DNA from: an uncultured Gammaproteobacteria bacterium
GTDB taxonomy: Bacteria; Patescibacteriota; Patescibacteriia; UBA1558; GWA2-36-10
Assembly: GCA_964638415.1 (NCBI GenBank)
Contig: CAZWYP010000002.1
Span: 97,997-161,996, forward strand
Length of the DNA: 64,000 nucleotides
Direction of reading: 5' to 3'
Shown: positions 1-54,125 of the stretch, one piece after another
Numbering within the stretch: the first letter of the stretch is position 1
Layout of the letters: each line of letters begins with the position of its first letter
Notes under the pieces: generated by a model
The model's input: only the letters and a program-made list of their open reading frames with translations
Told to the model about the DNA's origin: nothing
Database searches by the model: none
Program-made: the position numbers and the translations under genes

Positions 1-705
1 ATTATTATTGTAATCATTGTTATTTTAGCCGGTTGGTGGTTCGGTAAGGATTATATTTTCCCCGAAAAAGTCATTCCGGTTAGTAATGAACAAATTGAAG
101 ATCAGCAGAATAATAATCAGGTTAATAGTCAACAGAGCGTTTTTACTTTCGTAAATGGTTTATCAGAAGAAGATCAAGCCAAGGTGCGCAACTCTGAAGA
201 ATTTACTCTAATGTTGAAGACACAGCAAGTTTGTAGCCGTTTGTCAGAAGAGGATAAAAATGATTGTTTAGCAGATTTGCAAATCCAGCAGTTGATGGTA
301 GTTAATCGTTTAGATCTTTGCCCCCAGACAATAGCGGAAGATAGCTGTTATTACTATCTAGCGGTTAATAATTCTAACAGTCAAGGCTGCAATCAGATAG
401 CTGACCAGAGTTTAAAGAGTGACTGTTTAAATTCCGTATATCAGTCGCAAGCCAGCAGTCAGAAGAATATTAACAGCTGTGCCAGTATCAGTGATGAGTC
501 TTTAAAGGACAACTGCTATCAAAATATTTTCTACCAGCAGACTGATTTAGCTTTTTGTGACGAACAGGCAGTGGTTAATAATAATTTAAAAAATAAATGC
601 CAAAGCTTGATTTTATTTAATCAGGCAGTGAGACAGGGAGATTCAGCTATTTGTCAGCAAATCCCCCTGGATGAATATAAACAAAGTTGTTTGGCAGAGT
701 TATAA
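1..705 (+). CDS. 5'-truncated membrane-anchored Cys-rich repeat protein. A TM helix (IIIVIIVILAGWWF) is followed by roughly six ~23-aa units, each with two Cys (D/K-x-x-C ... C pattern).
   Basis: The frame is open from nt 1. The ORF track shows 184..705, but the same frame continues upstream without a stop. A hydrophobic helix is followed by Cys-paired repeats. No recognisable family. Confidence 0.45.
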   Translation: MIIVIIVILAGWWFGKDYIFPEKVIPVSNEQIEDQQNNNQVNSQQSVFTFVNGLSEEDQAKVRNSEEFTLMLKTQQVCSRLSEEDKNDCLADLQIQQLMVVNRLDLCPQTIAEDSCYYYLAVNNSNSQGCNQIADQSLKSDCLNSVYQSQASSQKNINSCASISDESLKDNCYQNIFYQQTDLAFCDEQAVVNNNLKNKCQSLILFNQAVRQGDSAICQQIPLDEYKQSCLAEL

Positions 706-720
706 TTAATTTTAAAAGCT

Positions 721-1536
721 ATGTTTGATGATCTAAAAAAAGATCAACAATTGAATAATACAGGACAAAATTCTTTTGGCAGCGATGCTAACAATGTTGC
801 ATCAGCACCAAAGAAATCTTTAGATGATATGTTTGGAGATGTTGACCCAGTGGCAGAAGCAGCGCCCAAACCCGCAGCGCCATTAATGGATAAACCCAGT
901 GCTGTGCAAACCGGAAAATTGCGGCCGGTCAGTGAGCAGAGCTATGGATCAATGGCAACTACGCCGGTTAATCAGTTGGCGGCTTCCCAGATGCTGATGG
1001 AAGAAGAACATGGACATGGCTCATTGCTTAAAAAATTATTAGTGGCTTTAGTTGGTTTGGTTTTAGTTGGTGTGGCAGCTACGATTACTTATTATTTGAT
1101 TATTAAAGATAAGCCGGAAGATAATCAGAATAATAATACGCCGGTAGTAGAAGAACAGCCGAAGCAAAACAATAATCAAAATAATAATGTTGTTACACCA
1201 CCAGAAAACAATAATCCCAGCATAGAAGACGACGATGCTGATGGCTTATCTAATGCTGATGAATTAATTTTTGGCACTAATCCCAATAAAGCAGATAGCG
1301 ATGAAGATGGTTTGTATGATCGGGAAGAAATCAAGACTTATAATACTGATCCTTTAGAGGCAGATTCAGATAATGACGGTTTAAATGACTGGGAAGAAAA
1401 ATTTAAATGGAATACTGATCCTTTAGATTCTGATTCCGACAATGATACTTACTTTGACGGAGTTGAGACTTCGCGAGGCTATAATCCTAATGGTCCAGGA
1501 TTATTACCAGAAGCAATTAATACGCCACAACCTTAA
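721..1536 (+). CDS. Single-pass membrane protein with an N/Q-rich linker and four thrombospondin-type-3-like Ca-binding repeats (D-x-D-x-D-G-x-x-D).
   Basis: TM helix LLKKLLVALVGLVLVGVAATITYYLII. Repeats DDDADGLSNADE, DSDEDGLYDREE, DSDNDGLNDWEE and DSDSDNDTYFDG. Confidence 0.55.
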   Translation: MFDDLKKDQQLNNTGQNSFGSDANNVASAPKKSLDDMFGDVDPVAEAAPKPAAPLMDKPSAVQTGKLRPVSEQSYGSMATTPVNQLAASQMLMEEEHGHGSLLKKLLVALVGLVLVGVAATITYYLIIKDKPEDNQNNNTPVVEEQPKQNNNQNNNVVTPPENNNPSIEDDDADGLSNADELIFGTNPNKADSDEDGLYDREEIKTYNTDPLEADSDNDGLNDWEEKFKWNTDPLDSDSDNDTYFDGVETSRGYNPNGPGLLPEAINTPQP

Positions 1537-1548
1537 GTTAAATAAATT

Positions 1549-2862
1549 ATGACTGACAATATCAGAGAACAAAATAATAATGCAGAGAAGCTGGAAAAAG
1601 AATCCCAGCAAGTTTCTAATGAGATTAATACCATAGTTAATCAGGAAATCGGTAAAAATAAAGAAAAGGAAGCTATTACCATAGATGCTGACAGTATACA
1701 TGTCATGCCTAAGAGATTTTTGCCGCAGTCTCCCAAGAAAAAACTGAGTAATAAGCAGAAATTCGTTTTAGCAATCATTGGCTTTGTTTTATTTCTAATT
1801 ATGGTAGTAGGGGTGATGTTGTGGTTTGCTGATAGGAGCATTAAGCAGTTGCCAAGTGAGCAGAATAATAGTAATAATCAACAGAATAGTAATCAGCAAG
1901 CTCAGCAGTTGACTCACGATGAGCAGATTATTAAAGACTTGGAAGAAATTAACAGCGCTTTAAGGAGATATTATACTGAATTTAAAGTGTATCCCAGCTC
2001 TTTATCAGTTTTGTCCGATTATTTTGATAATGGCGTGCCACGGGGACCCGACGGCTTAAATTATGATTATGAATTAACTGAACTTGGTAATAATTTTATT
2101 ATTTTGATTGATTTTGATGGTTCTGATCAAAAAAATCGAGTAGGCAAGTATCAATACACTAAGAATGGCTTAACTTATTATAATCCTGATCAGCCTCAAA
2201 ATAACAATCAGGTAATCACTCCACCACCGCCACCACCCAGTAATAACGCTACTTCCACCCCTATTACTCCACCACCGCCACCACCGACTGTAGCCAATCT
2301 CGATGTAGATGCTGATCAATTAACTGCTGATGAGGAAAATATTTATAATACTGATCCTAATGATGAAGATTCTGATAATGATGGTTTTAAGGACGGGGTA
2401 GAAATTACTAACTTGTACAATCCTTCTTCAACTTCTGGGCAATTATTAGATTCCGGTTTAGTCTCTATTTATAATAGTGCTGGTTACAGTTATAGCGTAT
2501 TTTATCCGACTTCTTGGGTAGTGGAAGCTATTGATGAAGAAGATAAACAAATAGTCTTCTTATCCGATACAGAAACTGGAGAATTTATTAGCGTTCAGAT
2601 TTTTACCAATGATTTTGCTTTGACTATGTCAGATTGGCGGGATAGGGTGGGCGTAGATAGCCAGTGGGTAGGATACACCTTAGGTAAAAAACAAAAATTG
2701 ACAGCTTACAAAACCACAGATGGTAATCATGTCTTATTTGTCAAAGATGGCAGCGGCAGCAGCGCTTATTTAATCTCTCACAATATTGAACAAGGAGAGC
2801 AAAAGCATTTTAATATTACTTTTGAAATGATGTTAAGCAGTTTTGAAATAACTAATGATTAG
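1549..2862 (+). CDS. Membrane-anchored protein with a pseudopilin/GspG-like domain, poly-Pro linkers, a TSP3-like repeat and a C-terminal globular domain.
   Basis: TM helix FVLAIIGFVLFLIMVVGVMLWFA. Segment IIKDLEEINSALRRYYTEFKVYPSSLSVL...PRGPDGLNYDYEL resembles type II secretion/type IV pseudopilin cores. There is no G/FTLIE prepilin cleavage site. PPPPPPS motif occurs twice. DEDSDNDGFKDG repeat. Confidence 0.5.
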   Translation: MTDNIREQNNNAEKLEKESQQVSNEINTIVNQEIGKNKEKEAITIDADSIHVMPKRFLPQSPKKKLSNKQKFVLAIIGFVLFLIMVVGVMLWFADRSIKQLPSEQNNSNNQQNSNQQAQQLTHDEQIIKDLEEINSALRRYYTEFKVYPSSLSVLSDYFDNGVPRGPDGLNYDYELTELGNNFIILIDFDGSDQKNRVGKYQYTKNGLTYYNPDQPQNNNQVITPPPPPPSNNATSTPITPPPPPPTVANLDVDADQLTADEENIYNTDPNDEDSDNDGFKDGVEITNLYNPSSTSGQLLDSGLVSIYNSAGYSYSVFYPTSWVVEAIDEEDKQIVFLSDTETGEFISVQIFTNDFALTMSDWRDRVGVDSQWVGYTLGKKQKLTAYKTTDGNHVLFVKDGSGSSAYLISHNIEQGEQKHFNITFEMMLSSFEITND

Positions 2863-3277
2863 GCAGCAATTTGAACTATTAATCAATAAGCGTAGCTTAT
2901 CTGCAGATTTTTCCTGGCTACCTGAATTAGCCAAAATAATTAATCGTAAATTTTCTTTGCAAAAAGAAATATCAGTAGCGTTGGCTTCAGAGGGGGAGAT
3001 TAAGAAACTAAACAAGATTTACCGTCATAAGAATAAAGTTACCGATGTTCTGTCTTTTATTATATCTTCACCGCAAATTTTAGGAGAAGTGATAATTTGT
3101 CTTTCGCAAGCTAAGCGTCAGGCAAAAGCCGCCGGCCATAGCTTGCGCCGAGAATTGCAGGTCTTGACCATTCACGGCATTTTGCACTTATTGGGGTATG
3201 ATCATGAGCGCAGTAAAGCAGAAGCCAAGCGGCAGGAAAAGTTGGAAAAAATAATATTAGCACAACTTAACAAATGA
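2855..3277 (+). CDS. ybeY: Endoribonuclease YbeY (rRNA maturation factor).
   Basis: H-x3-H-x5-H zinc motif HGILHLLGYDHE. Size about 140 aa. Confidence 0.85.
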   Translation: MIRQQFELLINKRSLSADFSWLPELAKIINRKFSLQKEISVALASEGEIKKLNKIYRHKNKVTDVLSFIISSPQILGEVIICLSQAKRQAKAAGHSLRRELQVLTIHGILHLLGYDHERSKAEAKRQEKLEKIILAQLNK

Positions 3278-3615
3278 GGCGTTGGTATAAGAGTTTTCAT
3301 CATGCAGTATTAGGCTTGAAAACGGTTTTTAAAACAGAAAAGAGTTTTAGATTCCATGTTTTAATTGCTGTTGCTGTTTTAATTGCTGCGGGGCTTTTTA
3401 AACTGGATGAGTTGCGTTTAATTATTATTTTTTTAACAATTGCTTTAGTTTTAGCCCTGGAGATAGTAAATTCAGCAGTAGAAAGACTAGTGGATATGTT
3501 GGCCCCGAAGACGCATTCCTTTGCCAAAGAAGTTAAGGATTTAATGGCAGCGGTGGTATTGGTTGCATCTATTTTCGCTCTCTTGATAGGATTGTTGATT
3601 TTTGTCATAAGATAG
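3274..3615 (+). CDS. dgkA: Diacylglycerol/undecaprenol kinase DgkA family (short form).
   Basis: LEIVNSAVERLVD motif. Three TM helices. Operonic with ybeY. Confidence 0.8.
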   Translation: MRRWYKSFHHAVLGLKTVFKTEKSFRFHVLIAVAVLIAAGLFKLDELRLIIIFLTIALVLALEIVNSAVERLVDMLAPKTHSFAKEVKDLMAAVVLVASIFALLIGLLIFVIR

Positions 3616-3702
3616 GTAATTTTATTTGGCAAATGATGGAATTTTAGCTATAATTAGTTTATAAAATTTATCAATTTTATTTTTTACACTTTTTTGTGAT
3701 TT

Positions 3703-4947
3703 ATGGCTAGTAATAAGGAAATAATTACTGGTTTAGACGTTGGTAGCAGCGCTATCCGCATTGTCATGGGCCAAAGATTGGCAAACGGCTCCCTGCAGAT
3801 AATTGGAGCAGCGGATACTCAGGCTGAAGGCGTCAGCAAAGGCAGTATTACTTCCATTGAGGAAGCGGTTTCTTGTATTTCAGAGACTGTGGAGAAGTGT
3901 GAAAGAATGACCGGTTTTACTATTGATAAAATGATTGTAGGCATTTCCGGTACGCATATTAAGACTTTAAATAGCCGGGGAGTAGTGGCAGTTGCTAAAG
4001 CCAATGAGCAGGTGCAAGAAACTGATATTGATCGAGCTTTGGAGGCTGCCCAAGCCATTGCTACGCCGCCTAATTATGAGATTTTACACGTATTACCAAC
4101 CAATTACCATTTGGATGATCAGAAAAACCTTAAGGATCCAGTAGGTATGTCCGGGGTGCGCTTGGAAGTTGAGACCCAGATTATTATGGGTTTGTCTTCC
4201 CAGATAAAAAATTTAACCAAGTGTATTTATCGTACTGGTATTGATATTGAAGATTTGGCTTTTTCCATTTTAGCTACTGCTGAAGCGGTTCTGACTAAAA
4301 AACAAAGAGATTTAGGCGTAGCGGTAGTTAATATTGGAGAAGCCACCACTTCTTTGGCGGTTTTTGAGGAAGGAGATATTTTACATACTGCTGTTTTACC
4401 AATTGGTGCTGGGCATGTTACTAATGATTTAGCTATTGGTTTACGCACTTCGGTGGAAACAGCGGAAATGGTAAAACTGGATCAAGCCCAAGCATTATCT
4501 GAGCCGATTTCTAAGCGTGATGAAGTGGATTTGAATAAATATTCCGATGAAGAGAAAAAAGGCACCTTTGTTTACAAAAAAGACATCGCTTCTATTGCCG
4601 AGGCTAGAATGGAAGAGATTTTTAGTTTAGTCAATAAAGAGTTGAAAACAATCGGCAGAGATGGTAAATTACCAGCAGGTTTGGTGCTTACCGGCGGCGG
4701 CGCTAAGCTACCCTTGGTGGTAGATTTAGCTAAAGAGGTTTTTAAACTTCCGGTTTTTCTAGGTTTACCCACAGAACGTAATTTTCCCATTGATAAGCTT
4801 AATGACCCTCAATTTACCACAGCTTTAGGGCTGGTAATTTGGGCGGAGCGCAATCTTAGTTCCCATCAGAATTTTTTATCTAACTTTTCTTCAATAAAAA
4901 ACACCACCAACAAAATGGTAGGCTGGTTTAAATCTTTATTACCTTAA
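3703..4947 (+). CDS. ftsA: Cell division protein FtsA.
   Basis: Actin-like ATPase motifs (GLDVGSS...). Located directly upstream of ftsZ. Confidence 0.9.
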
Positions 4948-4952
4948 ATAAC

Positions 4953-6128
4953 ATGTCCAAGAAAAACATTCAAGAAGTATCACCATCAGTGGAGACTTTT
5001 GCTAACATCAAAGTAGTAGGAGTCGGCGGTTCCGGCGGTTCAGCAATTAATCGAATGGTTAATTCCAATATTAGAGGAGTGGAATTTATTGCTGTTAATA
5101 CCGATGCCCAGGCCTTACATCATTCTGTTTCTCCTAATAAGATTCACATTGGCCGCAATACTACTAAGGGCTTAGGAGCGGGCATGGATCCTGATTTGGG
5201 ATCAAAATCAGCGGAAGAAAATGAAGCGGATATTGTTGGTACTTTGACTGGTGCCGATATGGTTTTTATTACCTGCGGCTTGGGCGGCGGTACTGGCACG
5301 GGAGCCGCGCCGATTATTGCCGATATTGCCAGAGAAGTGGGCGCTTTAACCGTAGCGGTAGTGACTAAGCCTTTTACTTTTGAAGGCGTGCAGCGACGGG
5401 AAATTGCCGAGCGCGGTTTAGATCGCTTAATAGATAAAGTAGATACCATTATTACTATACCCAATGACCGCTTGTTGCAAATTATTGATAAAAAAACATC
5501 TTTATTAGAAGCATTTTCCATTGTTGATGAAGTTTTAAAACAGGGTGTGCAGGGAATTTCCGAATTAATTACCGTGCCAGGTTTGGTGAATGTTGACTTT
5601 GCCGATGTTAAGGCAATTATGAAACAAGCGGGTTCCGCTTTGATGGGTATTGGTAAAGCCACTGGTGAAAACAGAGCGCAGGAGGCTGCTAAAGCCGCAA
5701 TTGACAGCCCCTTATTAGAGTTATCAATTAATGGTGCAACTGGAGTTTTGTTCACCATTGCCGGCAGTTCTGATTTGTCCATGTTTGAAGTTAATGAAGC
5801 AGCAGAGGTAATTACTGCTGCTTGTGATCCAGAGGCTAAAGTTATTTTTGGCGCCGTGATTGACGAAAGTTTAGGCGACGAAGTAAAGGTGACGGTTATT
5901 GCTACTGGTTTCCGTGAACATAATGAACGTCAGCCAGAAAGAGCGCCAGTACAACCAAATATTTCTTACCAGGAAACTTTTGCTAAAAAAGCAGAAGAGC
6001 GCACTATTAAAAAGGCTTTTAATAAGGAGAGGGAAGAAGTAGAAGAGGTGGAAGAATTACCAAAAACCAAGGAAGAAGAAGAATTAGATATTCCTGCTTT
6101 CTTGCGTAAAAAGCTAAAGAATCATTAA
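4953..6128 (+). CDS. ftsZ: Cell division GTPase FtsZ.
   Basis: Tubulin signature [23 protein letters not shown]. Confidence 0.95.
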
Positions 6129-10847: not shown

Positions 10848-12305
10848 TTGATGGGCAAAGCCAGATTCTTTCTGACAGGCAGTCTTCTTTTTTTATTGGT
10901 TAACTTCTATTTGAATTTTAACCAAGGTTTATTATCTTTACTGGATAATTATCTCTTAGAGGCTTGGTTGGTATTTGTTAGTTTATTATTTTTGACTTTT
11001 GTCGGTAAATATTTTTGGTGGCCGTTAATAGTCTTGGCGGCTATTTTACGTTTTTATTATTTTATCCAGCCGGAAGTCTTAACTCAAAATAATTTTGTTT
11101 ATGATCGTCAGTATTCTTTCATTGCGGAAATTATTGATTGGGATAAGAAGCTGAATGGCTGGCAATTGGTAGTTTTGCCCAAGGATTTAAATGATTTTTA
11201 TGGAAAAGTCCTAGTTAATGTTGAGCTTTATCCGGAATATGAACCGCAGCAGATTATTAGGATTAACTGCCGTCTGCGTCAGCCAGAACCGATTGCTAGC
11301 GATAATGGCCGTTTATTTTTCTATGATAAATATTTAGCCAAAGATGGAATTTTTGCTACTTGTTATTGGCCGCAAGTAGAGAGTATAGGCAAGAATAATA
11401 ATTTTTTAAGCCGATTGTGGTCAACTCAGGAATTTTTTCTTAATAATCTGAATAAAAATTTAGTAGAACCGGCTGGCAGTTTGGCTAAAGCGATGTTTTT
11501 TGACCAGCGGCGGGAAATGTCCAAAAGATTGCAGGTTGTATTTTCCCAGACCGGCTTAAGCCATGTAGTGGCTATTTCCGGGTCCCACATTGTAATTATT
11601 GTCTGGCTGTTGGAAATTTTCTTATTAACATTTTTTTACCGCCAGCAGGTAGTTTGGTTGATTGCCTCCATTATTATTATTTATTTATGGTTAATTGGTT
11701 TCCCTAGCGCGGCAGTCAGATCAGCTATTATGGTCGGCCTAATGATGCTTGGTCCTTATTTAGGAAGGCAGAGCGCTTCAATTTACGGTTTGCTGCTTAC
11801 GGCAGATATATTGGTTTGGTGGCATCCTTACGCTTTGATTTATGATATTGGTTTTCAGTTGTCATTTTTGGCTGTGGCTGGCTTGATTTTTTACAGCCGC
11901 TGGTGGGGAGACAAATTAAAATTTATTACTGAGCGCTGGAAATTACGCGAAATGGTTAGTGTTACTTTAGCCGCTCAGATGTTCGTCTGGCCTTTGATTG
12001 TCTACTACTTTGGCATTTTTTCTGTGGTGTCGGTTTTGGCTAATATTTTTATCTTGCCGCTCTTGCCAATGATTCTGCTCTTAGGCTTAAGCCTAGCCTT
12101 GTTGGGATCCTGGTGGTGGCTAGCGCCAGTTTTTAGCTGGCCTTTGTTCTTATTGCTGGAATTAATGATTTGGCTGTCAGAAAAATTTTCTCAAATTCCC
12201 TATGCTTATTTTTATTGGTCGGATTTTTCTTTAGGGCAGCTAGTGGTGATTGCTATTTTTATTATTATTTTTACTGCGATTATTAAACCCCATGAAGTCA
12301 GGTAA
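10848..12305 (+). CDS. comEC: ComEC/Rec2 DNA uptake channel (DUF4131 plus competence domain). It lacks the metallo-beta-lactamase domain.
   Basis: Motif QTGLSHVVAISGSHIVII. Polytopic membrane protein. Confidence 0.8.
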   Translation: MMGKARFFLTGSLLFLLVNFYLNFNQGLLSLLDNYLLEAWLVFVSLLFLTFVGKYFWWPLIVLAAILRFYYFIQPEVLTQNNFVYDRQYSFIAEIIDWDKKLNGWQLVVLPKDLNDFYGKVLVNVELYPEYEPQQIIRINCRLRQPEPIASDNGRLFFYDKYLAKDGIFATCYWPQVESIGKNNNFLSRLWSTQEFFLNNLNKNLVEPAGSLAKAMFFDQRREMSKRLQVVFSQTGLSHVVAISGSHIVIIVWLLEIFLLTFFYRQQVVWLIASIIIIYLWLIGFPSAAVRSAIMVGLMMLGPYLGRQSASIYGLLLTADILVWWHPYALIYDIGFQLSFLAVAGLIFYSRWWGDKLKFITERWKLREMVSVTLAAQMFVWPLIVYYFGIFSVVSVLANIFILPLLPMILLLGLSLALLGSWWWLAPVFSWPLFLLLELMIWLSEKFSQIPYAYFYWSDFSLGQLVVIAIFIIIFTAIIKPHEVR

Positions 12306-13131
12306 ATTAAAATTTTTCTTATTGTTCTCTTTAGCGATTATCTATCTTTTATTTGATATTTATTTTCCCCAAGCTAATTTGCAGGTAGATTTCCTAGCTA
12401 TTGGTCAGGGTAATGCAGTATTAATGCAGACGCCAAGTGGACAAACCATCTTATTTGACGGCGGACCAGATAATACACTGTTAACGGAGTTAGGCGAGGT
12501 ACTCCCTTGGTGGAAGCGCCGGATAGATTATGTGCTGATTAGTCATTACCATGCCGATCATTTTGCTGGTTTGCTGGAATTAGCCGAGCATTACCGTTTA
12601 GGAGAAGTAATTGTAACTGGCCATCAGCCAAGTAATGATCTGTTGTTTCAGCTTTGGCAGAACAAGATAGCAGAATATAATATTAAAGTGACAGTTGCTT
12701 ATCCCGGTGAAAAATGGGAGTTAGGTAATAATTTAAGCTGGCAGGTTTTATCTGCAGATGCCGGCCAGCAGGATTACAATGATAATTCTTTGGTAGTTAG
12801 GGTTTCTTATGGACAGATGGATTGGCTATTTCCCGGAGATCTAACTGCTCTTAAGGAAAAAGAAGTGTTGGCTAGCGGTTTCACTTTAGATTCGGAGGTG
12901 CTTAATGTTGGTCATCATGGCAGTAAATATTCTTCCTCTCCAGATTGGCTACAAGCCATTAGTCCGGAACTTTGCCTGATTCAATCTGAAGAGGGTAATT
13001 CTTTCGGTCATCCGCATCAGGAGCTGTTACAGAGGCTAGAAGAGGTTAATTGCCGGGTGGAAAGAAATGACCAACAGGGGAGAATTACCGTATTTTCCGA
13101 TGGCCAGGACTGGTGGATAAAGGCCAGGTAA
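12294..13131 (+). CDS. Membrane-anchored metallo-beta-lactamase-fold protein, equivalent to the ComEC C-terminal domain encoded separately.
   Basis: HxHxDH motif (ISHYHADHFAGL). ATG at 12294 overlaps the comEC stop in a different frame. N-terminal signal/TM segment. Confidence 0.75.
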
Positions 13132-14476: not shown

Positions 14477-14818
14477 ATGCAACTTATTATTCGTTGGTTA
14501 ATTAATGCTTTAATTTTATTATTAGCAGCTTATTTAATCCCGCAAATAACAGTAGAGAGCTTTTATGCCGCTTTGATGACGGCTCTGGTTTTGGGCATTG
14601 TCAATGCTTTAATCAGGCCGATTATTATTATCCTGACTTTGCCAATTAATATCTTAACACTGGGATTATTTACTTTAGTCATTAATGGTTTGCTAATAAT
14701 GTTTGTCGCTAGCTTTGTTAAAGGTTTTGCGGTAGCTGGATTTTGGCCGGCTGTCTTATTGTCCTTAATCCTATGGTTAGGCTCCTGGCTGACTAATGCT
14801 TTGTTGTCAGACAAATAA
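14477..14818 (+). CDS. DUF360 / phage-holin-family-4-like small membrane protein.
   Basis: 113 aa with four hydrophobic helices. Typical YvlD-like architecture. Confidence 0.5.
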   Translation: MQLIIRWLINALILLLAAYLIPQITVESFYAALMTALVLGIVNALIRPIIIILTLPINILTLGLFTLVINGLLIMFVASFVKGFAVAGFWPAVLLSLILWLGSWLTNALLSDK

Positions 14819-41934: not shown

Positions 41935-44900
41935 ATGAATTTAGTAAAGAAGTTTTTTGTCTTTGCTTTAATGCTGACCACTGTAACCACATTGTCAGTT
42001 ACCCCAGCTTTTAAGGTAGAAGCTGCTGGTAGCTATGGCACTGGCTCACTCTTGGCCTTACAAGGTGCGTCCGATGCCGCAGTGTACTACATTGGTTCAG
42101 ATGGAAAGAAATATGTCTTTCCAGATGCGAAAACATATTTCACCTGGTACGAAAACTTTGACAATGTTGTCCGAGTCCCAGTATCAGAATTAGATATGTA
42201 CCCAGATGGCGGAGCGGTTACCTACCGTGCCGGTACCAAATTGGTAAAGCATATCAATACTGCTAAAGTGTATGCCGTTGAACCAGGCGGAGTCGTCCGC
42301 TGGATCACCGACGAAGCTACTGCTATCTCCTTGTTTGGAGCTAACTGGGCTTCTCGCGTCCAGGACGTTATCCCAGGTTACTTCTCATCCAGCTATACAG
42401 TTGGTGATGATATGGGCAACACTTTACCAACCGGTTCTTTAGTCATGGAACCAGGTGGCAGCACTTACTACTACATTGAAAATGGCACCAAGAGACCATT
42501 TGCTTCCGCTGATGCGTTTGAAGCTAACGGTTTTGACTATGACAATGTATTGACTATGAGTTTATCAGGTTACACCGAAGGTGATTCTATCACCGGTGAG
42601 GAAGCTGAATTGTCAGGCTTTATGCCAGGCGAAGGCGGCCAGACTCCAGTCGGTGGTGACTTGAATGTTTCTTTGGCCTCAGACACTCCAGCTGTTGGTG
42701 TAGCTGTTACTGGAGCCGCTCGCTTACCTTTTACCAAGGTTAGATTGCAGACTGGTGCTTTGGGTGTGACCATTGATTCTATTGTTGTTGAGCGTGGCGG
42801 ATTAGGTCAGGATGGCGCTTTTACTAGCGTTGATATCTTAGATTCTAATATGTTGCCTTTTGACAACAACTCTAAGAGTTTTAATTCTACTCATCAGGCT
42901 ACCTTCACCAAGGATATTACTATCCCTGCTAACACCACTATGTATATTTACTTAGCTGGTAATATGGGAACTATTGGTAACACCTATGCCGGTGAATATC
43001 CAACTTTGGGTATTTCCAGCATTACTTTAGCTGGCGGTGGTTCAGTGATTGGTTCTTTGCCAATTTTCGGTAACTACATGACTACCAATGGCACTTTAGC
43101 TATTGGTTCAGCAACAGTTTCCCGTGGTTCTTACACCAACTCTACTTCTTCAACTTTGGAAGTCGGTCGCACTGATTACAGCTTCTTCTCCTTCCAGGTA
43201 GAAAATACCGGAAATGAAGACTTATCTTTGCGCCAACTGAGCGTGTACCAACAAGGTACCGCTGATCCAGACACTGATTTATCTGATTTTGAGTTGTTTA
43301 GAGACGGTACTAAGTTAGCTGATGGTATGGTTAATGGTGATTACATTAATTTTGTATTAACTTCACCATTGCTTATTCCTGAAGATCAGATTTACCAATT
43401 CCAGGTAAAAGCTGATATTGTTGACGGTTCTGCTAGAACAATAGATTTAGGTGTTTACCGTGCCACTGACCTATTATTTATGGGTCAGACCTATGGTTAC
43501 AATGTAACTCCTACCTATTCTGGAACTGGTTATTCAACAAACTCACCAGTTTTAAGTGATAATGAATTCACTATTTCTACTGGTACTTTGACTGTTGAAC
43601 GGAGCACCACTGTTGGTTCTGAAAATATTTCCATTGGAAATAATCAGGTCTTAGGTGCTTTCAAATTCACTGTTAAAGGTGAGCCAATTAGTATTACCGA
43701 TTTAACTTTGGCCATTGCGTCTACTACAGGTGCAACCACACAGAAGGTGGGCGCTTTGGAGGCAGTAAAATTAGTAAATGCTACTTCAAATACAACCTTG
43801 GCTGGCCCAACAGATCATCTTGATGGTTCTACTAACATTGTCTTCTCTGACACCTTTACTTTGCCAGTAGGAGATACAGTAGTGAAAGTGGTTGGTAATT
43901 TACGTGTCAACAAGGGTTGGGATACTGATGATACAATTTATGCCAGTATTGCTGCTCCAGAAACAGATATTACTGCCGAAGGAGAAGTTACTGGTAATAA
44001 TTTAACTGCGGCTGAAATTACTCCAACCGCAGCTGTTTCTACCAATACCCAAACTGTTAAAGGAGCTTACTTAGCTGTTACCCGCAACACTTTACCAGCT
44101 TCTGGTACAGTAATTGCCGGTCAGCAGGATGTAGAATTAGGTTCTTGGACCTTTAACGCCACTAACTCTGGTGAAGATGTTCGCGTAACCACTATTGCTT
44201 TTGCAGCCTCTTCCTCAGCAGCTACCAATTTAACTGTGTTTGACGGTACTACCGCCTTAACGCCAGTTAATGATGCTCCAGATTCAACAGTTGACGGTGC
44301 AACCACTACATTTAATTTTGATTCACCAATCATTATTACCAAGGGTACTTCCAAGACTATTAAATTAGTTGGTGACATTAACACTAATGCCACCGCTGAT
44401 CAGTCCTCACAGTTTGGTATTACTGATGCTTCTACTTACGACAATCCATCGGTACAGGCTTATGGTGTTTCCACCAATGCCCGCGCCTACACAGCAATTA
44501 CTGCTGATAACGGCGCTATCTTTACCTACTCTGGTACTGGTACTGTAACTGTCAGCAACAACAATAATCCAAACAATGGATTTGTTCGCGCTGGTTCAAC
44601 CGGTAATATCTTCGGTTATATCAAGATTGATGCTTTGAATGAAGATTTAGATCTTGATGAATTACATGTCTTTGTAGCGGATGGCGGTGTTACTGGTACT
44701 GCTACTGGTAACTATCAAGATGTTGCTATGTTATACATCTACGATGGTTCAACCTTATTAGGCAGCGCTTCCAGTCCAACTGACCAATCTACTGGTATGT
44801 ATGATTTCGACTTCCCGAATGGTACTTTGACTGTCGCCAAAGATAGTTACAAGACTTTGACTGTCAAGGCTGACATGGCTACTATCAGCCAAACTGTTGA

Positions 44901-45708
44901 TAATGCCCCTGGTACTCCGGGAGTTGACATCAAGTTCGGCTTAGGCGGAACTGATGGCTTCAAGTTCACTGGTAACGCTTCTAACAGCACTATTACCTCT
45001 GAAACTTACAATGGTTCTACCACTTCTGCTATGGTCTTGCACAAAGCTATCCCAACCGTAACCTTCTCAACTACTTCTAATCGTTTGGGTGCCGCTTCTG
45101 CTTTGACTAACGGCGCGGTGGATCTGTATGCCTTCAATGTTGCTGCCGACAATGGTGGTAACGAAGTGTTGCTCTATCGAGCCACCTTTGAAGTTGCTAC
45201 TTCTGGTGCCGGTGCTTGGGGTCTAACTAACTGTATTTTGAAAGACGGTTCTGGCAACACTGTTGGTGCTGCCACTACCCCAACTGGCGCGGATGCAACT
45301 GCTATGAACTTGTTGACTTATACTTTCAATAATCCAAATATTTCTGCCGGTGATGCACAAGAAGCCTTGACTATTGCTACTGGAAGTTCAGCTACTTATA
45401 CCTTGAATTGTCAGGTATCTGGCGCTGATTCTGGAGACGTTGTCAGTGTTGCCTTAGTTGGTGATGCTGCTTCATCCACCCCAGCTGCCAGTCATGGTAC
45501 TCCAGCTGCCGCTGGTCAGAATACCGCCGCTGCTTGGTCTGCTTATGACAAGGGTAACTTTGTCTGGTCAGACAACTTCAAGAATCGTGGTTTAGCTACC
45601 GACGGTGCTAATGCTACCGCTTACGGTCAATGGTATAATGGTTACTTAGTGCCAGGTATTGGTACTGTAGGAACCACTTCTGCCTACACTGTTGGTTGGT
45701 CAAGCTAA
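41935..45708 (+). CDS. Giant (1257 aa) secreted cell-surface protein, S-layer or adhesin-like. Signal peptide, then three tandem aromatic-rich repeats of about 55 aa, then a long Thr/Ser/Gly/Asn-rich beta-rich region.
   Basis: MNLVKKFFVFALMLTTVTTLSVTPAFKVEAAG signal. Repeats VYYIGSDGKKYVFPDAKTYFTW, KVYAVEPGGVVRWITDEATAISLFG and TYYYIENGTKRPFASADAFEANGF. The remainder is more than 30% T+S+G+N. Confidence 0.7.
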   Translation: MNLVKKFFVFALMLTTVTTLSVTPAFKVEAAGSYGTGSLLALQGASDAAVYYIGSDGKKYVFPDAKTYFTWYENFDNVVRVPVSELDMYPDGGAVTYRAGTKLVKHINTAKVYAVEPGGVVRWITDEATAISLFGANWASRVQDVIPGYFSSSYTVGDDMGNTLPTGSLVMEPGGSTYYYIENGTKRPFASADAFEANGFDYDNVLTMSLSGYTEGDSITGEEAELSGFMPGEGGQTPVGGDLNVSLASDTPAVGVAVTGAARLPFTKVRLQTGALGVTIDSIVVERGGLGQDGAFTSVDILDSNMLPFDNNSKSFNSTHQATFTKDITIPANTTMYIYLAGNMGTIGNTYAGEYPTLGISSITLAGGGSVIGSLPIFGNYMTTNGTLAIGSATVSRGSYTNSTSSTLEVGRTDYSFFSFQVENTGNEDLSLRQLSVYQQGTADPDTDLSDFELFRDGTKLADGMVNGDYINFVLTSPLLIPEDQIYQFQVKADIVDGSARTIDLGVYRATDLLFMGQTYGYNVTPTYSGTGYSTNSPVLSDNEFTISTGTLTVERSTTVGSENISIGNNQVLGAFKFTVKGEPISITDLTLAIASTTGATTQKVGALEAVKLVNATSNTTLAGPTDHLDGSTNIVFSDTFTLPVGDTVVKVVGNLRVNKGWDTDDTIYASIAAPETDITAEGEVTGNNLTAAEITPTAAVSTNTQTVKGAYLAVTRNTLPASGTVIAGQQDVELGSWTFNATNSGEDVRVTTIAFAASSSAATNLTVFDGTTALTPVNDAPDSTVDGATTTFNFDSPIIITKGTSKTIKLVGDINTNATADQSSQFGITDASTYDNPSVQAYGVSTNARAYTAITADNGAIFTYSGTGTVTVSNNNNPNNGFVRAGSTGNIFGYIKIDALNEDLDLDELHVFVADGGVTGTATGNYQDVAMLYIYDGSTLLGSASSPTDQSTGMYDFDFPNGTLTVAKDSYKTLTVKADMATISQTVDNAPGTPGVDIKFGLGGTDGFKFTGNASNSTITSETYNGSTTSAMVLHKAIPTVTFSTTSNRLGAASALTNGAVDLYAFNVAADNGGNEVLLYRATFEVATSGAGAWGLTNCILKDGSGNTVGAATTPTGADATAMNLLTYTFNNPNISAGDAQEALTIATGSSATYTLNCQVSGADSGDVVSVALVGDAASSTPAASHGTPAAAGQNTAAAWSAYDKGNFVWSDNFKNRGLATDGANATAYGQWYNGYLVPGIGTVGTTSAYTVGWSS

Positions 45709-46529: not shown

Positions 46530-48872
46530 ATGCTAGTGAATAAAAAAATATTAAGTCGTTTTATTTGGGTATTGTTGGGGTTAATAATGTTAACTCCACT
46601 GTATGTTAATAGCGACTGGTTTTTCCCTTATATTTTTTCTAAGACTTTAGCCTTTAGAATTCTGGTTGAAGTCTTATTTTTAGTCTGGCTAGCCTGGCTT
46701 TATACTGCTAGAGAAAAAATAAAAATAGACTGGTTGACTATTATCTTTACTGTCTTCATGTTAACCATGTTTATTTCTTCGCTATTCGGCCCTTATTTTT
46801 ATTTCAGTTTTTGGAGCAATATTGAGCGCAGCGAAGGTTTGTTACTCTGGTTGCACTTATTTGCTTTATTCTTAGTCCTGCGCAATTTTATTGTCGGCCG
46901 TAATCAGTGGAAAATTTTGATAAACATATTCTTTGCTTCCGCCCAGATTGTCGCCTTAATCGGATTATTGCAGTATTTTAACGTGGATTTTATTAATCAT
47001 GGAGCTGCTAGTGATGAACGAGTTTCTTCCACTATTGGTAATGCCGCTTATTTAGCTGGATATTTATTATTTGCCGCTTACTTTGGCTTGTATTTATTAT
47101 TTAAGCACCGCCAGAACATTTATCTGAAGGCTTATTATCTTGCTTTTGTCTTGATGGATCTTTTTGTAATGGCGCAGACCGGTACTAGAGGAGCTTTTTT
47201 GGCCTTAATTATTACCGCTTTTTTATTCTTAGTTTACAATGTTATCCAGTTAAAAAATAGAAAGTTTAAATACTCCTTACTATTAGTCGGAGTTTTAATT
47301 GCTTTAAGTATTGTTTTAGTTTATTTAAATAAAGATAGTAATTTTGTAAAAAACAGTCTGCCTCTGCAGCGCTTAGCTAACATTTCTTTTAGTGAGAGGA
47401 CCGCTCAAACTCGCTTAATGGCCTGGAATGCGGCCTGGCAGGGCTTTTTAGATAGGCCACTGTTAGGCTGGGGCAATGAGAATTATTATATTGTATTCAA
47501 TAGGTATTTTGATCCGGAGATTTATTCCCATGCTGGGTCTCGCGTTTGGTTTGATCGGGCGCATAATATTTTCTTGGATCATTTGGTGAACGGAGGAATA
47601 ATTGGTTTTATTGCTTATTTATTTTTCCTTTTCGGTCCGATCTGGATTTTATTTAAAAGGGGAGTCTGGTCTAATTCTTTATGGTCTAAATTTAGGAAAA
47701 AATTGCCAATAGGAGCTCCGGTTAAAATGAATTTTGGTAATCAGATGCTGTTGTTGTCTACGCTTGCTTTCGTGATTCAAGGATTATTAGTATTTGAAGC
47801 TCTGGTTACTTATCTTCCCTTACTGATAATCTGGGCTATGATTGGCGAGAAGTATTTTAAGACCAAGTGGGAAATAGGTAGTCGTAATATATTCTTATGG
47901 ACTACAGTTGTTTATTTACTGGCCCTTTTTCCTATTATGTATTATGTAAATTACCGCGAAGCCAAGGCTAGTGGTGCGGTCATTGAAGCTTTGCGTTTAG
48001 AAAACGCTGATTATGCCGCTTCCAAGGAAATTACCAGTAATAATTATATTAAAGCTATTGAGACCTACTACCAAGCTATTAATTACAACAGTTCAGGGAC
48101 CAATGAATATCGCCGTAGATTAGCAGAGTATGTTGATGGACTAGTGGTTGGCCGGAATATTACTCCTTATGAGGCTTTGAAATACGTAGAGGAATTAGAT
48201 AAGGAATTATATAAGCGTTTGGAGGAAAATCCTTATGATGCCGCTAATTTAATACTGCTAATGCGCCATTATAATTATACTTATATTTTAAATTATAACC
48301 GCTTGTATGAAGTCGCTAAAATTGGAGAATTATTAAAAGCCTTAAGTCCAACTAGACCCCAGCTTTATCATGAATTAGGCTATGCCGATCTTTATTTATA
48401 CCAGCATTTTAGGGACGCCGGCGATACAGTGCAAGCAGAAAAATACCAGAAATCATTGTTAGATAATTTCCAATACGCTATTGATTTGAACAATGACGTA
48501 GTGGAATCTTATGTTAATATGATTATGTCTTTAATTGCTTCTGATCAGCCGGATAAGGTACAAGGTTATTTAGATATTATGGATCAGATGCAGCTCAATT
48601 ATTACCGGGAAGATTATCTGAACCGTATGGTTAATTCCGCTATTAATGCCAAGGATTATTTTTGGATGGAGAAACTGTTGAATGTTCTTATTGAAAAATA
48701 CCCAGAGAACCCTAACTATTTAATCCGTTTAGCTGTTGCTTATGCTTCCCAGGATAAGGATGATTTAGCCATTTCCACAGCAGAGAGAGTAAAAAGTTTT
48801 GGCGCCCAGTATAATTCTCAAGTAGATGAATTTGTCAGGCAAGTTCGAGCAGGAACTTTCCAGATTGAATAA
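46530..48872 (+). CDS. O-antigen ligase/polymerase (Wzy_C) family polytopic membrane protein fused to a TPR-like C-terminal domain of about 350 aa. Candidate O-oligosaccharyltransferase.
   Basis: About 12 TM helices. Wzy_C-like region with GTRGAFLAL...AHNIFLDHLVNGGIIG. Long TPR-like tail. Confidence 0.65.
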   Translation: MLVNKKILSRFIWVLLGLIMLTPLYVNSDWFFPYIFSKTLAFRILVEVLFLVWLAWLYTAREKIKIDWLTIIFTVFMLTMFISSLFGPYFYFSFWSNIERSEGLLLWLHLFALFLVLRNFIVGRNQWKILINIFFASAQIVALIGLLQYFNVDFINHGAASDERVSSTIGNAAYLAGYLLFAAYFGLYLLFKHRQNIYLKAYYLAFVLMDLFVMAQTGTRGAFLALIITAFLFLVYNVIQLKNRKFKYSLLLVGVLIALSIVLVYLNKDSNFVKNSLPLQRLANISFSERTAQTRLMAWNAAWQGFLDRPLLGWGNENYYIVFNRYFDPEIYSHAGSRVWFDRAHNIFLDHLVNGGIIGFIAYLFFLFGPIWILFKRGVWSNSLWSKFRKKLPIGAPVKMNFGNQMLLLSTLAFVIQGLLVFEALVTYLPLLIIWAMIGEKYFKTKWEIGSRNIFLWTTVVYLLALFPIMYYVNYREAKASGAVIEALRLENADYAASKEITSNNYIKAIETYYQAINYNSSGTNEYRRRLAEYVDGLVVGRNITPYEALKYVEELDKELYKRLEENPYDAANLILLMRHYNYTYILNYNRLYEVAKIGELLKALSPTRPQLYHELGYADLYLYQHFRDAGDTVQAEKYQKSLLDNFQYAIDLNNDVVESYVNMIMSLIASDQPDKVQGYLDIMDQMQLNYYREDYLNRMVNSAINAKDYFWMEKLLNVLIEKYPENPNYLIRLAVAYASQDKDDLAISTAERVKSFGAQYNSQVDEFVRQVRAGTFQIE

Positions 48873-48885
48873 TTAATTATTAGTA

Positions 48886-50586
48886 ATGAAATTAGCCATT
48901 GGTTTGTCAAAAATTAAGTGGCCGCAAATCGCTATAGTAGCTATATTATTATTAGCTACTATTTTGCGTTTTTACGCGCTGGATCGGGCTGATGTCTTGA
49001 CTGACGAAGCTTCAGTCAGCTTCCGCTCCATTGGCTATTTTGACTGGCTGGCTACTCCTTACCAAACTACGCCCTTAGAGTGGCTGTCTAGCCGTCCCAC
49101 TTGGACTTATTTATCTTTTCATGATCATCCTCCTTTCAGCTTTTTGCTGCAATTCTTGCAATTTAAAATTACTGGCGTTTCCATTTTAACTATGCGGTTC
49201 TGGCCGGCTCTCTATGGCGTATTAAGCGTTTGGCTGGTTTATTTAATTGGCCGCCGTTTATTCTCCAACAGCCTTGGTCTATTAGCAGCTGGGTTATTAG
49301 CTGTTAACAATCTGCATATCTGGATCTCTCGTTTAGCTTTGCAGGAGTCATTGGTTGTCTTATTGATTTTAACCAGCTTTTACTGGTGGCTGAAATTTTT
49401 GGAAAATAGGAAGTATTTTTATTGGTTGGGGTTATTCATAGGTTTAAGCTTATTGGCCAAATTAACAGCCATTATTTTACTGCCGATAATCTTTGGCTAT
49501 CTTATTTTCTGGCGGAAAGATATTCTACGCTGGCGGGAATTTTACTGGGCAGTAATTATTGCACTGGCCGTCTGGTCGCCTTATTGGGTTTATAATATTA
49601 TTTTGTATCAGAATTTCGGCCATTTTGATTTCCAATTATCCTGGCTTTTAGGACAGCCGGTAGAAGCTTGGCAACAGCGCCCCGGGCGTACGGAAGTGCC
49701 TAATAAGTCATCAGCTTTGTTTTTTATCTTTGGCGGCCTTAAGTATAGCTTGTCTCCAATATTCTTTTGGCTGGTTAATTTGAGCTTAGTGGCAGGGATA
49801 ATTAAGTTATTTAAGGATAAATTCAGCGATAAGAATTTTTCTTATTTACTATGGATAATTTTATCTCATCTTATCCTTTTGATTTTTATCGGCAGCAGCG
49901 CCAGATTTCTTGCTCTGCTCACCCCTTGGCTGTGCTTATTGTTAGCCTATGCTTTATTAATTTGGCATCGTTATTTTTCCCAGGTCTTCATGATTATTAT
50001 TTTATGCTTGATATTTGTGGTCGAAGTTTTTTATAGCTATAATACCAATATTAATTATGTTTTTTGGGGCAAGAAGAATATTACTTATTCGCCGTTGAAG
50101 AGCCAGGCTTATCCTTATGGCTATAACCAGCTAGAAAATTATTTTGATAATCTGTTATCCAACCAGAAACCAGCTGTGCTGTTATCTGTAGTGAATCCAA
50201 ACATTAATAATTTTATTAAAGAGCAAGTTGCTAAAAATACCGGACAGCCGCAAGCTAAGATGGTCATTTATGACCAGCGCTTGCAAGGGGAGAGCTTACT
50301 GTGGTTTTTTACCAGAAGATTTTTTTACCAAGGCTGGCCTATGCTGCCCTATGATACTTACCAGCAGGCCCTATCTTTGCAAGGCGAGGATTTATTTCGC
50401 CAGTTGGGAATCAAAGACTTTTACTATGTGATGCCCACTGATGTGCTGCCGCTGGATTTAACTAATGAGGCGGCTAATAATGAGCTTGTTAATTTTGTTT
50501 CTCGTTTACAAGAACAGGGGATACAGCCGCAAAAAATATTTAATCATCAGGGGAAATTAATATTTGAAGTTTACCATTTTAATTAA
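48886..50586 (+). CDS. GT-C fold glycosyltransferase of the PMT/ArnT (GT39/GT83-like) family.
   Basis: Polytopic N-terminus with a first-loop DE motif (LTDEASVSF). HDHPPFSFLL motif. Large C-terminal soluble domain. Confidence 0.7.
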   Translation: MKLAIGLSKIKWPQIAIVAILLLATILRFYALDRADVLTDEASVSFRSIGYFDWLATPYQTTPLEWLSSRPTWTYLSFHDHPPFSFLLQFLQFKITGVSILTMRFWPALYGVLSVWLVYLIGRRLFSNSLGLLAAGLLAVNNLHIWISRLALQESLVVLLILTSFYWWLKFLENRKYFYWLGLFIGLSLLAKLTAIILLPIIFGYLIFWRKDILRWREFYWAVIIALAVWSPYWVYNIILYQNFGHFDFQLSWLLGQPVEAWQQRPGRTEVPNKSSALFFIFGGLKYSLSPIFFWLVNLSLVAGIIKLFKDKFSDKNFSYLLWIILSHLILLIFIGSSARFLALLTPWLCLLLAYALLIWHRYFSQVFMIIILCLIFVVEVFYSYNTNINYVFWGKKNITYSPLKSQAYPYGYNQLENYFDNLLSNQKPAVLLSVVNPNINNFIKEQVAKNTGQPQAKMVIYDQRLQGESLLWFFTRRFFYQGWPMLPYDTYQQALSLQGEDLFRQLGIKDFYYVMPTDVLPLDLTNEAANNELVNFVSRLQEQGIQPQKIFNHQGKLIFEVYHFN

Positions 50587-50592
50587 AATCTT

Positions 50593-52341: not shown

Positions 52342-52344
52342 AAT

Positions 52345-52380
52345 AAAAACGCCTGGACTATTATTCCAGGCGTTTTGTTT
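52345..52380. terminator. Bidirectional terminator between convergent genes.
   Basis: AAAACGCCTGGA-ctattat-TCCAGGCGTTTTGTTT. Confidence 0.75.
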
Positions 52381-52386
52381 AGAAGT

Positions 52387-52782
52387 TTATATTTTAGCAA
52401 ACGGCTCCATAGACATGATTATTTGACTTTCTTGGTGGCTGATTAGTTTTCTATTTTCAACAGTTTCTACCAGTTTGAGTAATTTATTATCCTCTTTGCG
52501 GATCATGACGATGAGATCACCGCGTAGATCCATTAGCTTTTCATCTAAGTAATCCTTGGTGACTATTTTATTTTGGATGATGCTTTCAACATTAGTTAAT
52601 CTTTGATCTAAACCATCGAATCTGTTCTCCAGGCCATCGAACCTGTTTTCTAAACCATCGAATCTGTTTTCCAGTGTATTAAACCTATTTTCCATATGTT
52701 CCGCAAAAGTATTAACTGCTGACAATACAGTATCAATAGATTGTTGTAAATCCTCCTTAGTTAAATAATCGTTTTTCTTCAT
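52387..52782 (-). CDS. Coiled-coil protein with tandem heptad repeats (ENRFDGL x3-4).
   Basis: Repeats NRFNTLENRFDGLENRFDGLENRFDGLDQRL. Encoded by 21-nt tandem DNA repeats. Confidence 0.45.
   Translation of the reverse strand: MKKNDYLTKEDLQQSIDTVLSAVNTFAEHMENRFNTLENRFDGLENRFDGLENRFDGLDQRLTNVESIIQNKIVTKDYLDEKLMDLRGDLIVMIRKEDNKLLKLVETVENRKLISHQESQIIMSMEPFAKI
52608..52693. repeat. Four tandem 21-nt repeats (consensus AAACCATCGAATCTGTTTTCC on the plus strand) inside the coiled-coil gene.
   Basis: Direct reading. The units are in frame and encode the ENRFDGL heptads on the minus strand. Confidence 0.7.
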
Positions 52783-52839
52783 ATTTTCTTCTTAATTTAT
52801 TAGATTTTAATTATATTCCAGCTTATTTTATTAGTCAAA

Positions 52840-54027: not shown

Positions 54028-54056
54028 ATTTTGGCTAAAATTAGCTATATTTTAGA

Positions 54057-54085
54057 TTGACTTTTTACTTGATTATTGGTATAAT
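54057..54085 (+). promoter_or_regulatory. Sigma70-like promoter (TTGACT-17-TATAAT) for the downstream glycosyltransferase operon.
   Basis: ttgactttttacttgattattggtataat. Confidence 0.5.
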
Positions 54086-54125
54086 TTTATAGAATTTAAG
54101 AAGATAAATCAAGAGCAGCGGAAGC

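Follow-up and report, generated by a model that had tools for sequence, protein, structure and literature searches.

The stretch of DNA analysed here (the window, 64,000 nt; GenBank assembly GCA_964638415.1, contig CAZWYP010000002.1, positions 97,997 to 161,996, forward strand) derives from an uncultured bacterium filed under Gammaproteobacteria and placed by GTDB within the Patescibacteriota. Its first 2.9 kb contain three plus-strand open reading frames (ORFs), here called g1 (cut by the window edge), g2 and g3, and the minus strand of this region (1-2862) contains only short chance ORFs. Downstream lie ybeY, dgkA, ftsA and ftsZ (Table 1). Our main subject is g3, in the middle of which a domain related to the globular head of type IV pilins appears to serve outside any filament, and the role that g1, g2, g3 and a giant neighbouring protein may play on the cell surface.

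Table 1. Features of the g1-g3 locus and its downstream neighbours, with window coordinates and the basis of each assignment (TM, transmembrane; AF2, AlphaFold2; pLDDT, predicted local distance difference test score)
Feature	Position	Strand	Basis or remark
g1, last 234 of 241 codons	1..705	+	no Pfam match; 33% identity to L017:8189-8947
g1 predicted signal-anchor helix, residues 4-23, NILIIIIVIIVILAGWWFG	1..48	+	hydropathy maximum 2.66
g1 six Cys-pair repeats, C-x9-14-C	232..690	+	Cys pattern aligns with TSP3-fused L059 homolog (E 9e-6)
g2, 271 aa: putative cytoplasmic tail, TM helix, N-rich linker, four TSP3 repeats	721..1536	+	positional orthologs in at least 20 Patescibacteria loci
g2 putative cytoplasmic motif DDMF	823..834	+	family pattern [ED]D[IM]F, plus conserved MFDD N-terminus
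g2 predicted TM helix, about residues 98-129	1012..1107	+	hydropathy
g2 four calcium-type TSP3 repeats, DxDxDGxxDxxE, 23-codon period	1228..1503	+	Pfam TSP3_bac, 3 stretches
g3, 437 aa	1549..2862	+	ORF call and homologs
g3 conserved, putatively cytoplasmic tail core, residues 19-71, SNEINTIVNQEIGK ... HVMPKRFLPQSPKK	1603..1761	+	25 invariant residues in alignment A1
g3 predicted TM helix, residues 72-94	1762..1830	+	hydropathy; AF2 helix 68-99
g3 N/Q linker (54% N+Q) between TM helix and pilin-like helix	1831..1908	+	AF2 pLDDT <50, residues 100-119
g3 predicted pilin-like (T2SSG/GspG-type) globular domain, residues 121-215	1909..2193	+	profile against PDB, AF2, Foldseek
g3 proline-rich spacer, ITPPPPPP unit duplicated (2215-2237, 2263-2285)	2194..2298	+	DNA repeat D6, 96% identity
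g3 TSP3 region: degenerate DVDADQLTADEE and canonical DSDNDGFKDGVE repeat, then LYNP	2299..2424	+	alignment and DNA repeats
g3 predicted C-terminal PsbP-like alpha/beta domain, residues 296-437	2434..2859	+	family profile, ortholog Pfam matches, fold matches
ybeY (2855-3277) and dgkA (3274-3615)	2855..3615	+	ybeY overlaps g3 by 8 nt, dgkA overlaps ybeY by 4 nt
ftsA (3703-4947) and ftsZ (4953-6128)	3703..6128	+	conserved neighbours downstream of dgkA

Searched as a single sequence, g3 has no pilin match in Pfam and returns only noise from the PDB, and its isolated pilin-like domain does not match Pfam T2SSG at E ≤0.01. From seven homologs we built a first profile of the segment, and from its matches a second one with 43 sequences. 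Against the PDB, the seven-homolog profile places GspG/EpsG on top (3gn9, E 3.3e-4), while the larger one reaches E 3.8e-7, its best eight matches all being of GspG type. Fifteen of the 43 profile relatives match Pfam T2SSG (PF08334) on their own. A domain-only AF2 model based on a deeper alignment was predicted with high confidence (pLDDT 91.2; predicted template modelling score 0.81) and comprises a 23-residue helix, a short helix and four strands. When this model was compared with the PDB using Foldseek, the best 17 matches were exclusively pilins and pseudopilins, among them EpsG, PulG, C. difficile PilA1, Thermus PilA4 and TTHA1221, and Neisseria PilV, with probabilities of up to 0.98 (3gn9), TM-scores of about 0.5 (0.51 for 3gn9) and weak E-values (0.03). 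Seventeen core residues of the segment are invariant over seven orthologs that share 35-60% identity. From the profiles and the modelled fold we regard residues 121-215 of g3 as genuinely, if distantly, homologous to the T2SSG-type pilin head, a relationship that is reached through intermediates. The initial annotation had described a segment closely resembling the conserved core of GspG-type pseudopilins and proposed a search for the pilin fold; profile and fold comparison both find GspG/EpsG and pilins, although the word "closely" overstated a similarity that amounts to about 19% identity.

Type 4 pilins are defined by a class III signal, a glutamate at position 5 (Glu5) and a continuous N-terminal helix, the hydrophobic half of which lies in the filament core (PMC10191384). 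Of the sequence and structural features of type IV pilins, g3 displays only the globular head fold. It has no match to Pfam N_methyl, and six-frame translation of the window revealed no class III motif. The sequence leading into its TM helix (...KKKLSNKQK-FVLAIIGF...) has neither Gly at -1 nor Glu at +5, no Glu occurs within the helix itself, and K69, Q70 and K71 are invariant in the g3 family. The TM helix is preceded by 71 putatively cytoplasmic residues (about 70 had been estimated at first), and some 220 residues follow the pilin-like domain. The helix expected to be continuous is interrupted by a 26-residue N/Q linker (pLDDT <50) between the modelled TM helix (68-99) and the pilin helix (123-145). 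With no class III signal, no Glu5 and an interrupted N-terminal helix, the pilin-like domain should be unable to polymerise. Nor does g3 qualify as a modular pilin, since its pilin module lies inside the protein and no class III signal goes with it. A Pfam scan of 41 window ORFs, which covered the window on either side of about 18-37 kb, revealed no pilus assembly genes (PilB/GspE, PilC/GspF, PilD); the ORFs within that interval were judged, by position and size only, to be ribosomal-protein and translation-factor genes. Taken together, sequence and model indicate that g3 is not a pilin and that it uses a pilin module outside a filament, in agreement with the original reading of a pilin-type domain without a prepilin site.

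The pilin-like segment is not present in all g3 proteins. It is absent from five of 12 close homologs (P0008-P0012, about 350 aa), which lack exactly that stretch, and among 22 positional orthologs from public genomes it occurs in seven and is missing in 15, being kept in the distant locus L070 (E 4e-13). The position of the insert is occupied in L016 by an fn3-like stretch (below the Pfam cut-off), in L012 and L022 by an unrelated insert of about 150 aa, and elsewhere by low-complexity sequence only. This distribution shows the pilin-like domain to be an optional insert, or accessory cassette, and not the core of g3.

The same pilin-like module is present in the product of the gene directly upstream of g1, which encodes a giant Cys-rich surface protein (L005:1-2553; a full gene is found, for example, at L006:2018-9364). 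Giant proteins of this kind range in length from 2,100 aa to over 3,100 aa and have 70-158 Cys. They contain four TIG stretches and a Big_5 domain, as well as a T4SS_pilin-like N-terminus and an fn3-like stretch that both score under the Pfam cut-off; a VWA domain with a DxSxS motif occurs only in the window lineage and in L017. Their most widely conserved stretch reads LRRDTxRLGDL...Y, followed by ...YYP...LPxDPLN...YxY...ANFE. When the giant proteins were searched with the pilin-domain profile as a hidden Markov model (HMM) at default settings, there was no match; with filters switched off, this stretch is colinear with the profile once Cys-rich insertions are allowed, and hhalign aligns it to the g3 domain family with a probability of 96.7% (E 4e-10). 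The alignments thus place the pilin-like module about 1,850 residues into the giant protein, split by Cys-rich insertions. In the near-identical loci L001 and L002, the end of the giant gene (4507-5248) is called as part of a 2457-aa product in one case and as a separate 218-aa gene in the other; this difference, at the position that g1 occupies in the window, is a matter of gene calling or a frameshift.

Signal-less pilin domains are also found well beyond this locus. The seven-homolog profile matched 1241 cluster representatives at E ≤0.001 in 1.84 billion proteins. In a sample of 160 proteins, made up of the matches listed and 12 g3 homologs, a class III-like motif was present in only four; the module is mostly internal or in tandem, and it also occurs behind an RDD membrane domain. 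True prepilins in the sample combine N_methyl with T2SSG (P0097, P0143). Many others, including P0035, P0052, P0062 and P0080, are lipoproteins of about 250 aa, in which a lipobox Cys is followed by GVELLTTTAIQGEL and two pilin-like stretches; GVELLTTTAIQGEL looks like a Thr-rich, hydrophilic version of the pilin N-terminal helix. We found no description in the literature of the locus or of signal-less pilin domains.

Apart from the exchangeable segment, alignment of the family shows a conserved g3 core made up of an N-terminal tail with an HxMPxxF motif, the TM helix, the TSP3 repeats and an end domain of about 140 residues. The tail contains HVMPKRF (1699-1719; family pattern [IV]-[HY]-[TV]-M-P-x-x-F), a motif that recurs in distant positional orthologs whose ectodomains are down at 25-33% identity. 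In homologs of about 40% overall identity, the tail is 72% identical as compared with 26-29% for the ectodomains. Because a Lys cluster precedes the TM helix, the tail is probably cytoplasmic. Further along the protein, the duplication of the ITPPPPPP unit in the spacer appears to be recent, given the similarity of the two DNA copies. The TSP3 region of g3 scores 21.7 bits, under the Pfam cut-off of 25, and orthologs score 28.7-32.7 bits; residues D272, D274, D276, D278, G279 and D282 are invariant in the homolog alignment, and the unit is 72% identical in DNA to a g2 unit over 100 nt (repeat family D1). In the ortholog at L011, two in-frame TAA codons (L011:3540-3545) fall within the TSP3 repeat, and this gene may be a pseudogene or reflect an assembly error.

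The end domain of g3 is, on profile and fold comparison, PsbP-like. Its family profile finds CyanoP (2xb3, E 2.5e-4) and sll1418 in the PDB, and among 15 orthologs six match Pfam PsbP (PF01789) and two match PsbP_2 (PF18933); the window protein itself scores 19.1 bits for PsbP, below the 23.5 cut-off. The full-length AF2 model of g3 is poor overall (pLDDT 52) and moderately confident over the end domain (57-71), and its Foldseek list, which mixed two domains, includes SciW, DcrB and TP0453, proteins that we take to share the PsbP/Mog1-type fold.

The TSP3 repeats of g2 are real. They match Pfam TSP3_bac (PF18884) at E 2e-15 with 56.7 bits against a cut-off of 25, have their motifs at residues 170, 192, 215 and 238, and form part of DNA repeat family D1. 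The product of g1 is of a different kind. An overlapping public contig (L005:2567-3292) shows that the gene begins 21 nt upstream of the window and that its full length is 241 aa. Its 12 Cys form six pairs with spacings of 9-14 residues (85/96, 114/123, 137/149, 167/179, 193/207 and 225/237), and it has no match in Pfam, NCBIfam or the PDB. Only one non-self homolog was found in 5.8 billion proteins, besides the L017 copy (33% identity) and a fusion in L059, so that g1, initially presented as one of a cluster of three, cannot be regarded as a conserved member of it. That fusion (L059:9227-10153) joins a Cys-pair domain of g1 type to TSP3 repeats in one protein and is encoded between the giant gene and g2, suggesting that g1 is functionally tied to the TSP3 set.

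According to hydropathy analysis, each of the three proteins has exactly one strongly hydrophobic segment, situated near the N-terminus (g1 residues 4-23, g2 about 98-129, g3 72-94; Kyte-Doolittle 19-residue maxima 2.66, 2.44 and 3.16). The C-terminal parts bear features typical of exported proteins, namely Cys pairs, TSP3 repeats and Pro-rich linkers, and these features, together with the Lys cluster before the g3 TM helix, suggest an N-in/C-out topology for all three. The N/Q fraction of the linkers is 0.39-0.54. What the initial annotation had read from the letters is confirmed here: a single TM helix followed by a putative outside region in all three products, N/Q-rich linkers, the Cys-pair array of g1, the D-x-D-x-D-G-x-x-D repeats of g2 and g3 (in the latter one canonical and one degenerate unit, with orthologs passing the Pfam cut-off), and the proline-rich linkers of g3. 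It had overlooked the optional nature of the pilin-like insert, the PsbP-like end domain, the conserved tail, the giant neighbour with its pilin-like module, the wide occurrence of signal-less pilin domains and the synteny with ybeY-dgkA-ftsA-ftsZ.

More than 20 loci keep the order giant protein(s)-g2-g3-ybeY-dgkA-ftsA-ftsZ, with FtsZ identities as low as about 55%; the bins concerned carry the labels Komeilibacteria, Kerfeldbacteria, Magasanikbacteria, Falkowbacteria, Paceibacteria and "Parcubacteria group". In closer relatives nrdR lies 3' of ftsZ, and hisS, a HIT protein gene, rpsU and a YqeY-like gene are found upstream in relatives. All full-length relatives of g3 come from metagenome bins of Patescibacteria, also known as the candidate phyla radiation (CPR). 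The check proposed at first, whether the three genes co-occur in relatives, therefore comes out positive for g2 and g3, which are linked in all relatives examined (at least 20 loci), but not for g1, which is rare. Several public bins titled "uncultured Gammaproteobacteria ... binchicken" (L008, L016, L018, L040 and others) bear the Patescibacteria-type locus, with the FtsZ of L008 being 90% identical to that of the window; the Gammaproteobacteria labels of these bins are probably wrong.

Within the window, g1 and g2 are 15 nt apart and g2 and g3 are separated by 12 nt. Such tight spacing and the overlaps further downstream suggest that g1-g2-g3-ybeY-dgkA constitute one transcription unit, as does the location of the best promoter-like site (3626-3654, 11/12 matches), the sole near-consensus one, in the dgkA-ftsA gap. 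This gap measures 87 nt and is followed by ftsA, ftsZ and nrdR, so that ftsAZ may have a promoter of their own.

The window has a G+C content of about 33-44% and includes, beyond this locus, a ribosomal-protein cluster, a large glycosylation cluster and ComEC. Although ribosomal-protein genes are clustered here, scans of all 64 kb detected neither a tRNA gene nor any Rfam family reaching its gathering score. ComEC (10848-13131) is split into two overlapping ORFs, one with DUF4131 and Competence domains (485 aa) and one with a metallo-beta-lactamase domain (293 aa); the split may be genuine or stem from a frameshift or a sequencing error. A 113-aa protein matching Phage_holin_4_2 (14477-14818, E 3e-33) is flanked by ndk and an M50 peptidase gene. 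A 1257-aa ORF without a Pfam match (41935-45708) is immediately followed by a TPR protein and the glycosylation cluster (46530-63407). The latter encodes a 780-aa Wzy_C/O-antigen-ligase-like protein, two PMT_2 glycosyltransferases, three methyltransferases and an asparagine synthase, as well as six GT4-type and one GT2 glycosyltransferases, and its products could modify surface proteins such as g1-g3.

With a probability of roughly 0.55, we propose that g1, g2 and g3 are co-transcribed bitopic envelope proteins, that the set forms a calcium-stabilised surface scaffold or adhesion layer with the giant protein, and that the pilin-like domain of g3 is a binding module within it. In this proposal, g2 and g3 would be the conserved small members of a lineage-wide surface module, encoded between one or two giant Cys-rich proteins and ybeY-dgkA-ftsA-ftsZ. 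Both would be held by their N-terminal helices, with flexible stalks projecting through the wall. From the inside outwards, the g3 stalk would consist of the HxMPxxF tail, the TM anchor, the N/Q linker, the exchangeable cassette, a stiff polyproline spacer, the TSP3 repeats and the PsbP-like tip. The pilin-like cassette would most likely act as a globular binding module on the cell surface and not as a filament subunit. The set would work together with the giant neighbour, which carries the same predicted pilin-like module and, in the window lineage, a VWA domain. In Myxococcus, the TSP3/COMP-like repeats of CglD give calcium-dependent adhesion and were proposed to engage the MIDAS (metal ion-dependent adhesion site) of a VWA partner (bioRxiv 10.1101/2023.10.19.562135). 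By analogy, the TSP3 repeats of g2 and g3 may have an adhesive role. The data establish the domain identities, the topology features, the lack of the defining pilin features, the synteny and the variability of the insert; exposure at the surface, adhesion and the binding of calcium and of partners are inferred. The interpretation offered by the initial annotation is thus supported in part, its Ca-dependent attachment apparatus being a putative role.

Several observations weigh against this proposal. The T2SSG, TSP3 and PsbP similarities of the window g3 all lie below Pfam cut-offs, so that these assignments lean on family profiles and predicted structures, and the Foldseek E-values are weak, though the top matches are uniform. 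The restriction of the giant's VWA domain to the window lineage and L017 means that a TSP3-VWA partnership cannot be general. Moreover, the tail is the most conserved part of g3, which a simple adhesin model leaves unexplained.

The conserved tail speaks for the main alternative, in which g2 and g3 would act in division or envelope growth as proteins specific to Patescibacteria. Much as in bitopic divisome proteins, or like septal sorting signals of YSIRK type, [ED]D[IM]F and HxMPxxF would tether them to FtsA/FtsZ or target them to the division site, and the outside modules would be secondary. In more than 20 loci of several candidate phyla, g2 and g3 immediately precede ybeY-dgkA-ftsA-ftsZ, which is consistent with this, as is the persistence of the tail motif where ectodomains have diverged. 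Nevertheless, two unrelated housekeeping genes, ybeY and dgkA, separate g3 from ftsA, the best promoter-like site falls between dgkA and ftsA, and the conserved block also spans hisS, HIT, rpsU, yqeY and nrdR, indicating that gene order is kept here regardless of function. No Pfam or NCBIfam match to FtsQ/DivIB (none at E ≤1), FtsL/B, FtsN, ZipA or SepF was obtained. We also considered the g3 tail as a mimic of the FtsZ C-terminal peptide but do not claim this, the Pro-Phe spacing being different (two residues instead of one). On balance we find a divisome role unlikely. A bolder version, to which we attach somewhat less credence still, holds that g2 and g3 represent a Patescibacteria-specific bitopic class whose tail motifs couple FtsA/FtsZ, or a site-specific insertion route, to stalks with exchangeable cassettes (pilin-like, fn3 and others). 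Were this the case, the division site or new cell pole would be physically linked to the surface structures that episymbionts use for contact.

It is also conceivable that a pilin gene was once captured and that the pilin-like segment is its decaying remains, without a function of its own beyond that of a neutral spacer in a variable stalk, since it lies in the most variable part of g3 and is dispensable in many orthologs. The invariant core residues, the very confidently predicted compact fold and the retention of the module in the distant L070 and, across lineages, in the giant neighbour make such neutrality quite improbable. Finally, the idea that g3 is a genuine non-canonical type IV pilin or pseudopilin with an unusual processing site, built into a filament, can draw on the homology of its globular domain to GspG-type pilins and on ComEC, encoded 8 kb downstream, which implies that DNA-uptake machinery, normally pilin-using, is probably present in the genome, but it is largely refuted by the signal, topology and linker data given above, by the lack of pilus assembly genes among the window ORFs scanned and by the absence of the domain from most orthologs, and we give it next to no chance.

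The locus has a wider bearing. Patescibacteria make up a large share of bacterial diversity and are mostly attached to other cells, and their surface proteins are almost entirely uncharacterised; the locus offers a widely conserved candidate set at a fixed genomic address, consisting of a giant surface protein and two small TSP3 proteins. Time and again the pilin head has been put to use as a common extracellular module lacking a pilin signal, in bitopic proteins, tandem arrays, a giant protein and lipoproteins, which bears on how pilin folds evolve new roles. As regards annotation, a "GspG" or "pilin" match in such genomes should not be equated with a pilus subunit.

Comparison with known systems places the individual parts of g2 and g3 in different contexts. 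With FtsQ/DivIB they share only topology and a position near ftsA, as POTRA and FtsQ/DivIB domains are not matched. The end domain of g3 resembles PsbP/CyanoP and Mog1/PsbP-fold proteins (DcrB, SciW/DUF1795, TP0453) by profile and fold, but there is no photosystem context, similarity is below Pfam cut-offs and model confidence is moderate. Myxococcus CglD, MtsD and the OmpA-family TSP3 proteins have DxDxDG units in common with g2 and g3 (NCBIfam CglD, E 5e-9, repeats only), and CglD adhesion involves a VWA protein, a domain found in the giant neighbour in the window lineage; by contrast, g2 and g3 belong to a single-membrane organism, are small and bitopic, have only 2-4 repeats and lack a lipobox, an OmpA domain and a VWA domain of their own.

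The pilin-like domain of g3 shares with GspG/EpsG/PulG (T2SSG PF08334; 3gn9, 4lw9, 1t92), its top profile and fold matches, the amphipathic helix D-L-x-x-I-x-x-A-L-x-x-Y ... Y-P, the lP-x-DP...Y-x-Y loop and a four-stranded sheet. Unlike these proteins, g3 has no class III signal, Glu5 or hydrophobic N-terminal helix half, and its domain lies in the middle of the protein behind a separate TM anchor and linker, with a sequence that on its own is under the Pfam threshold. The modular pilins, such as PilB and PilC of Streptococcus sanguinis and CpaL of Caulobacter, likewise combine a pilin with unrelated binding modules in one polypeptide (PMC8179133, PMC9934059, PMC12607857). They differ in retaining the class III signal and entering the filament, the extra module having been grafted onto a working pilin, whereas in g3 the pilin module itself appears to be the graft, on a protein with its own TM anchor.

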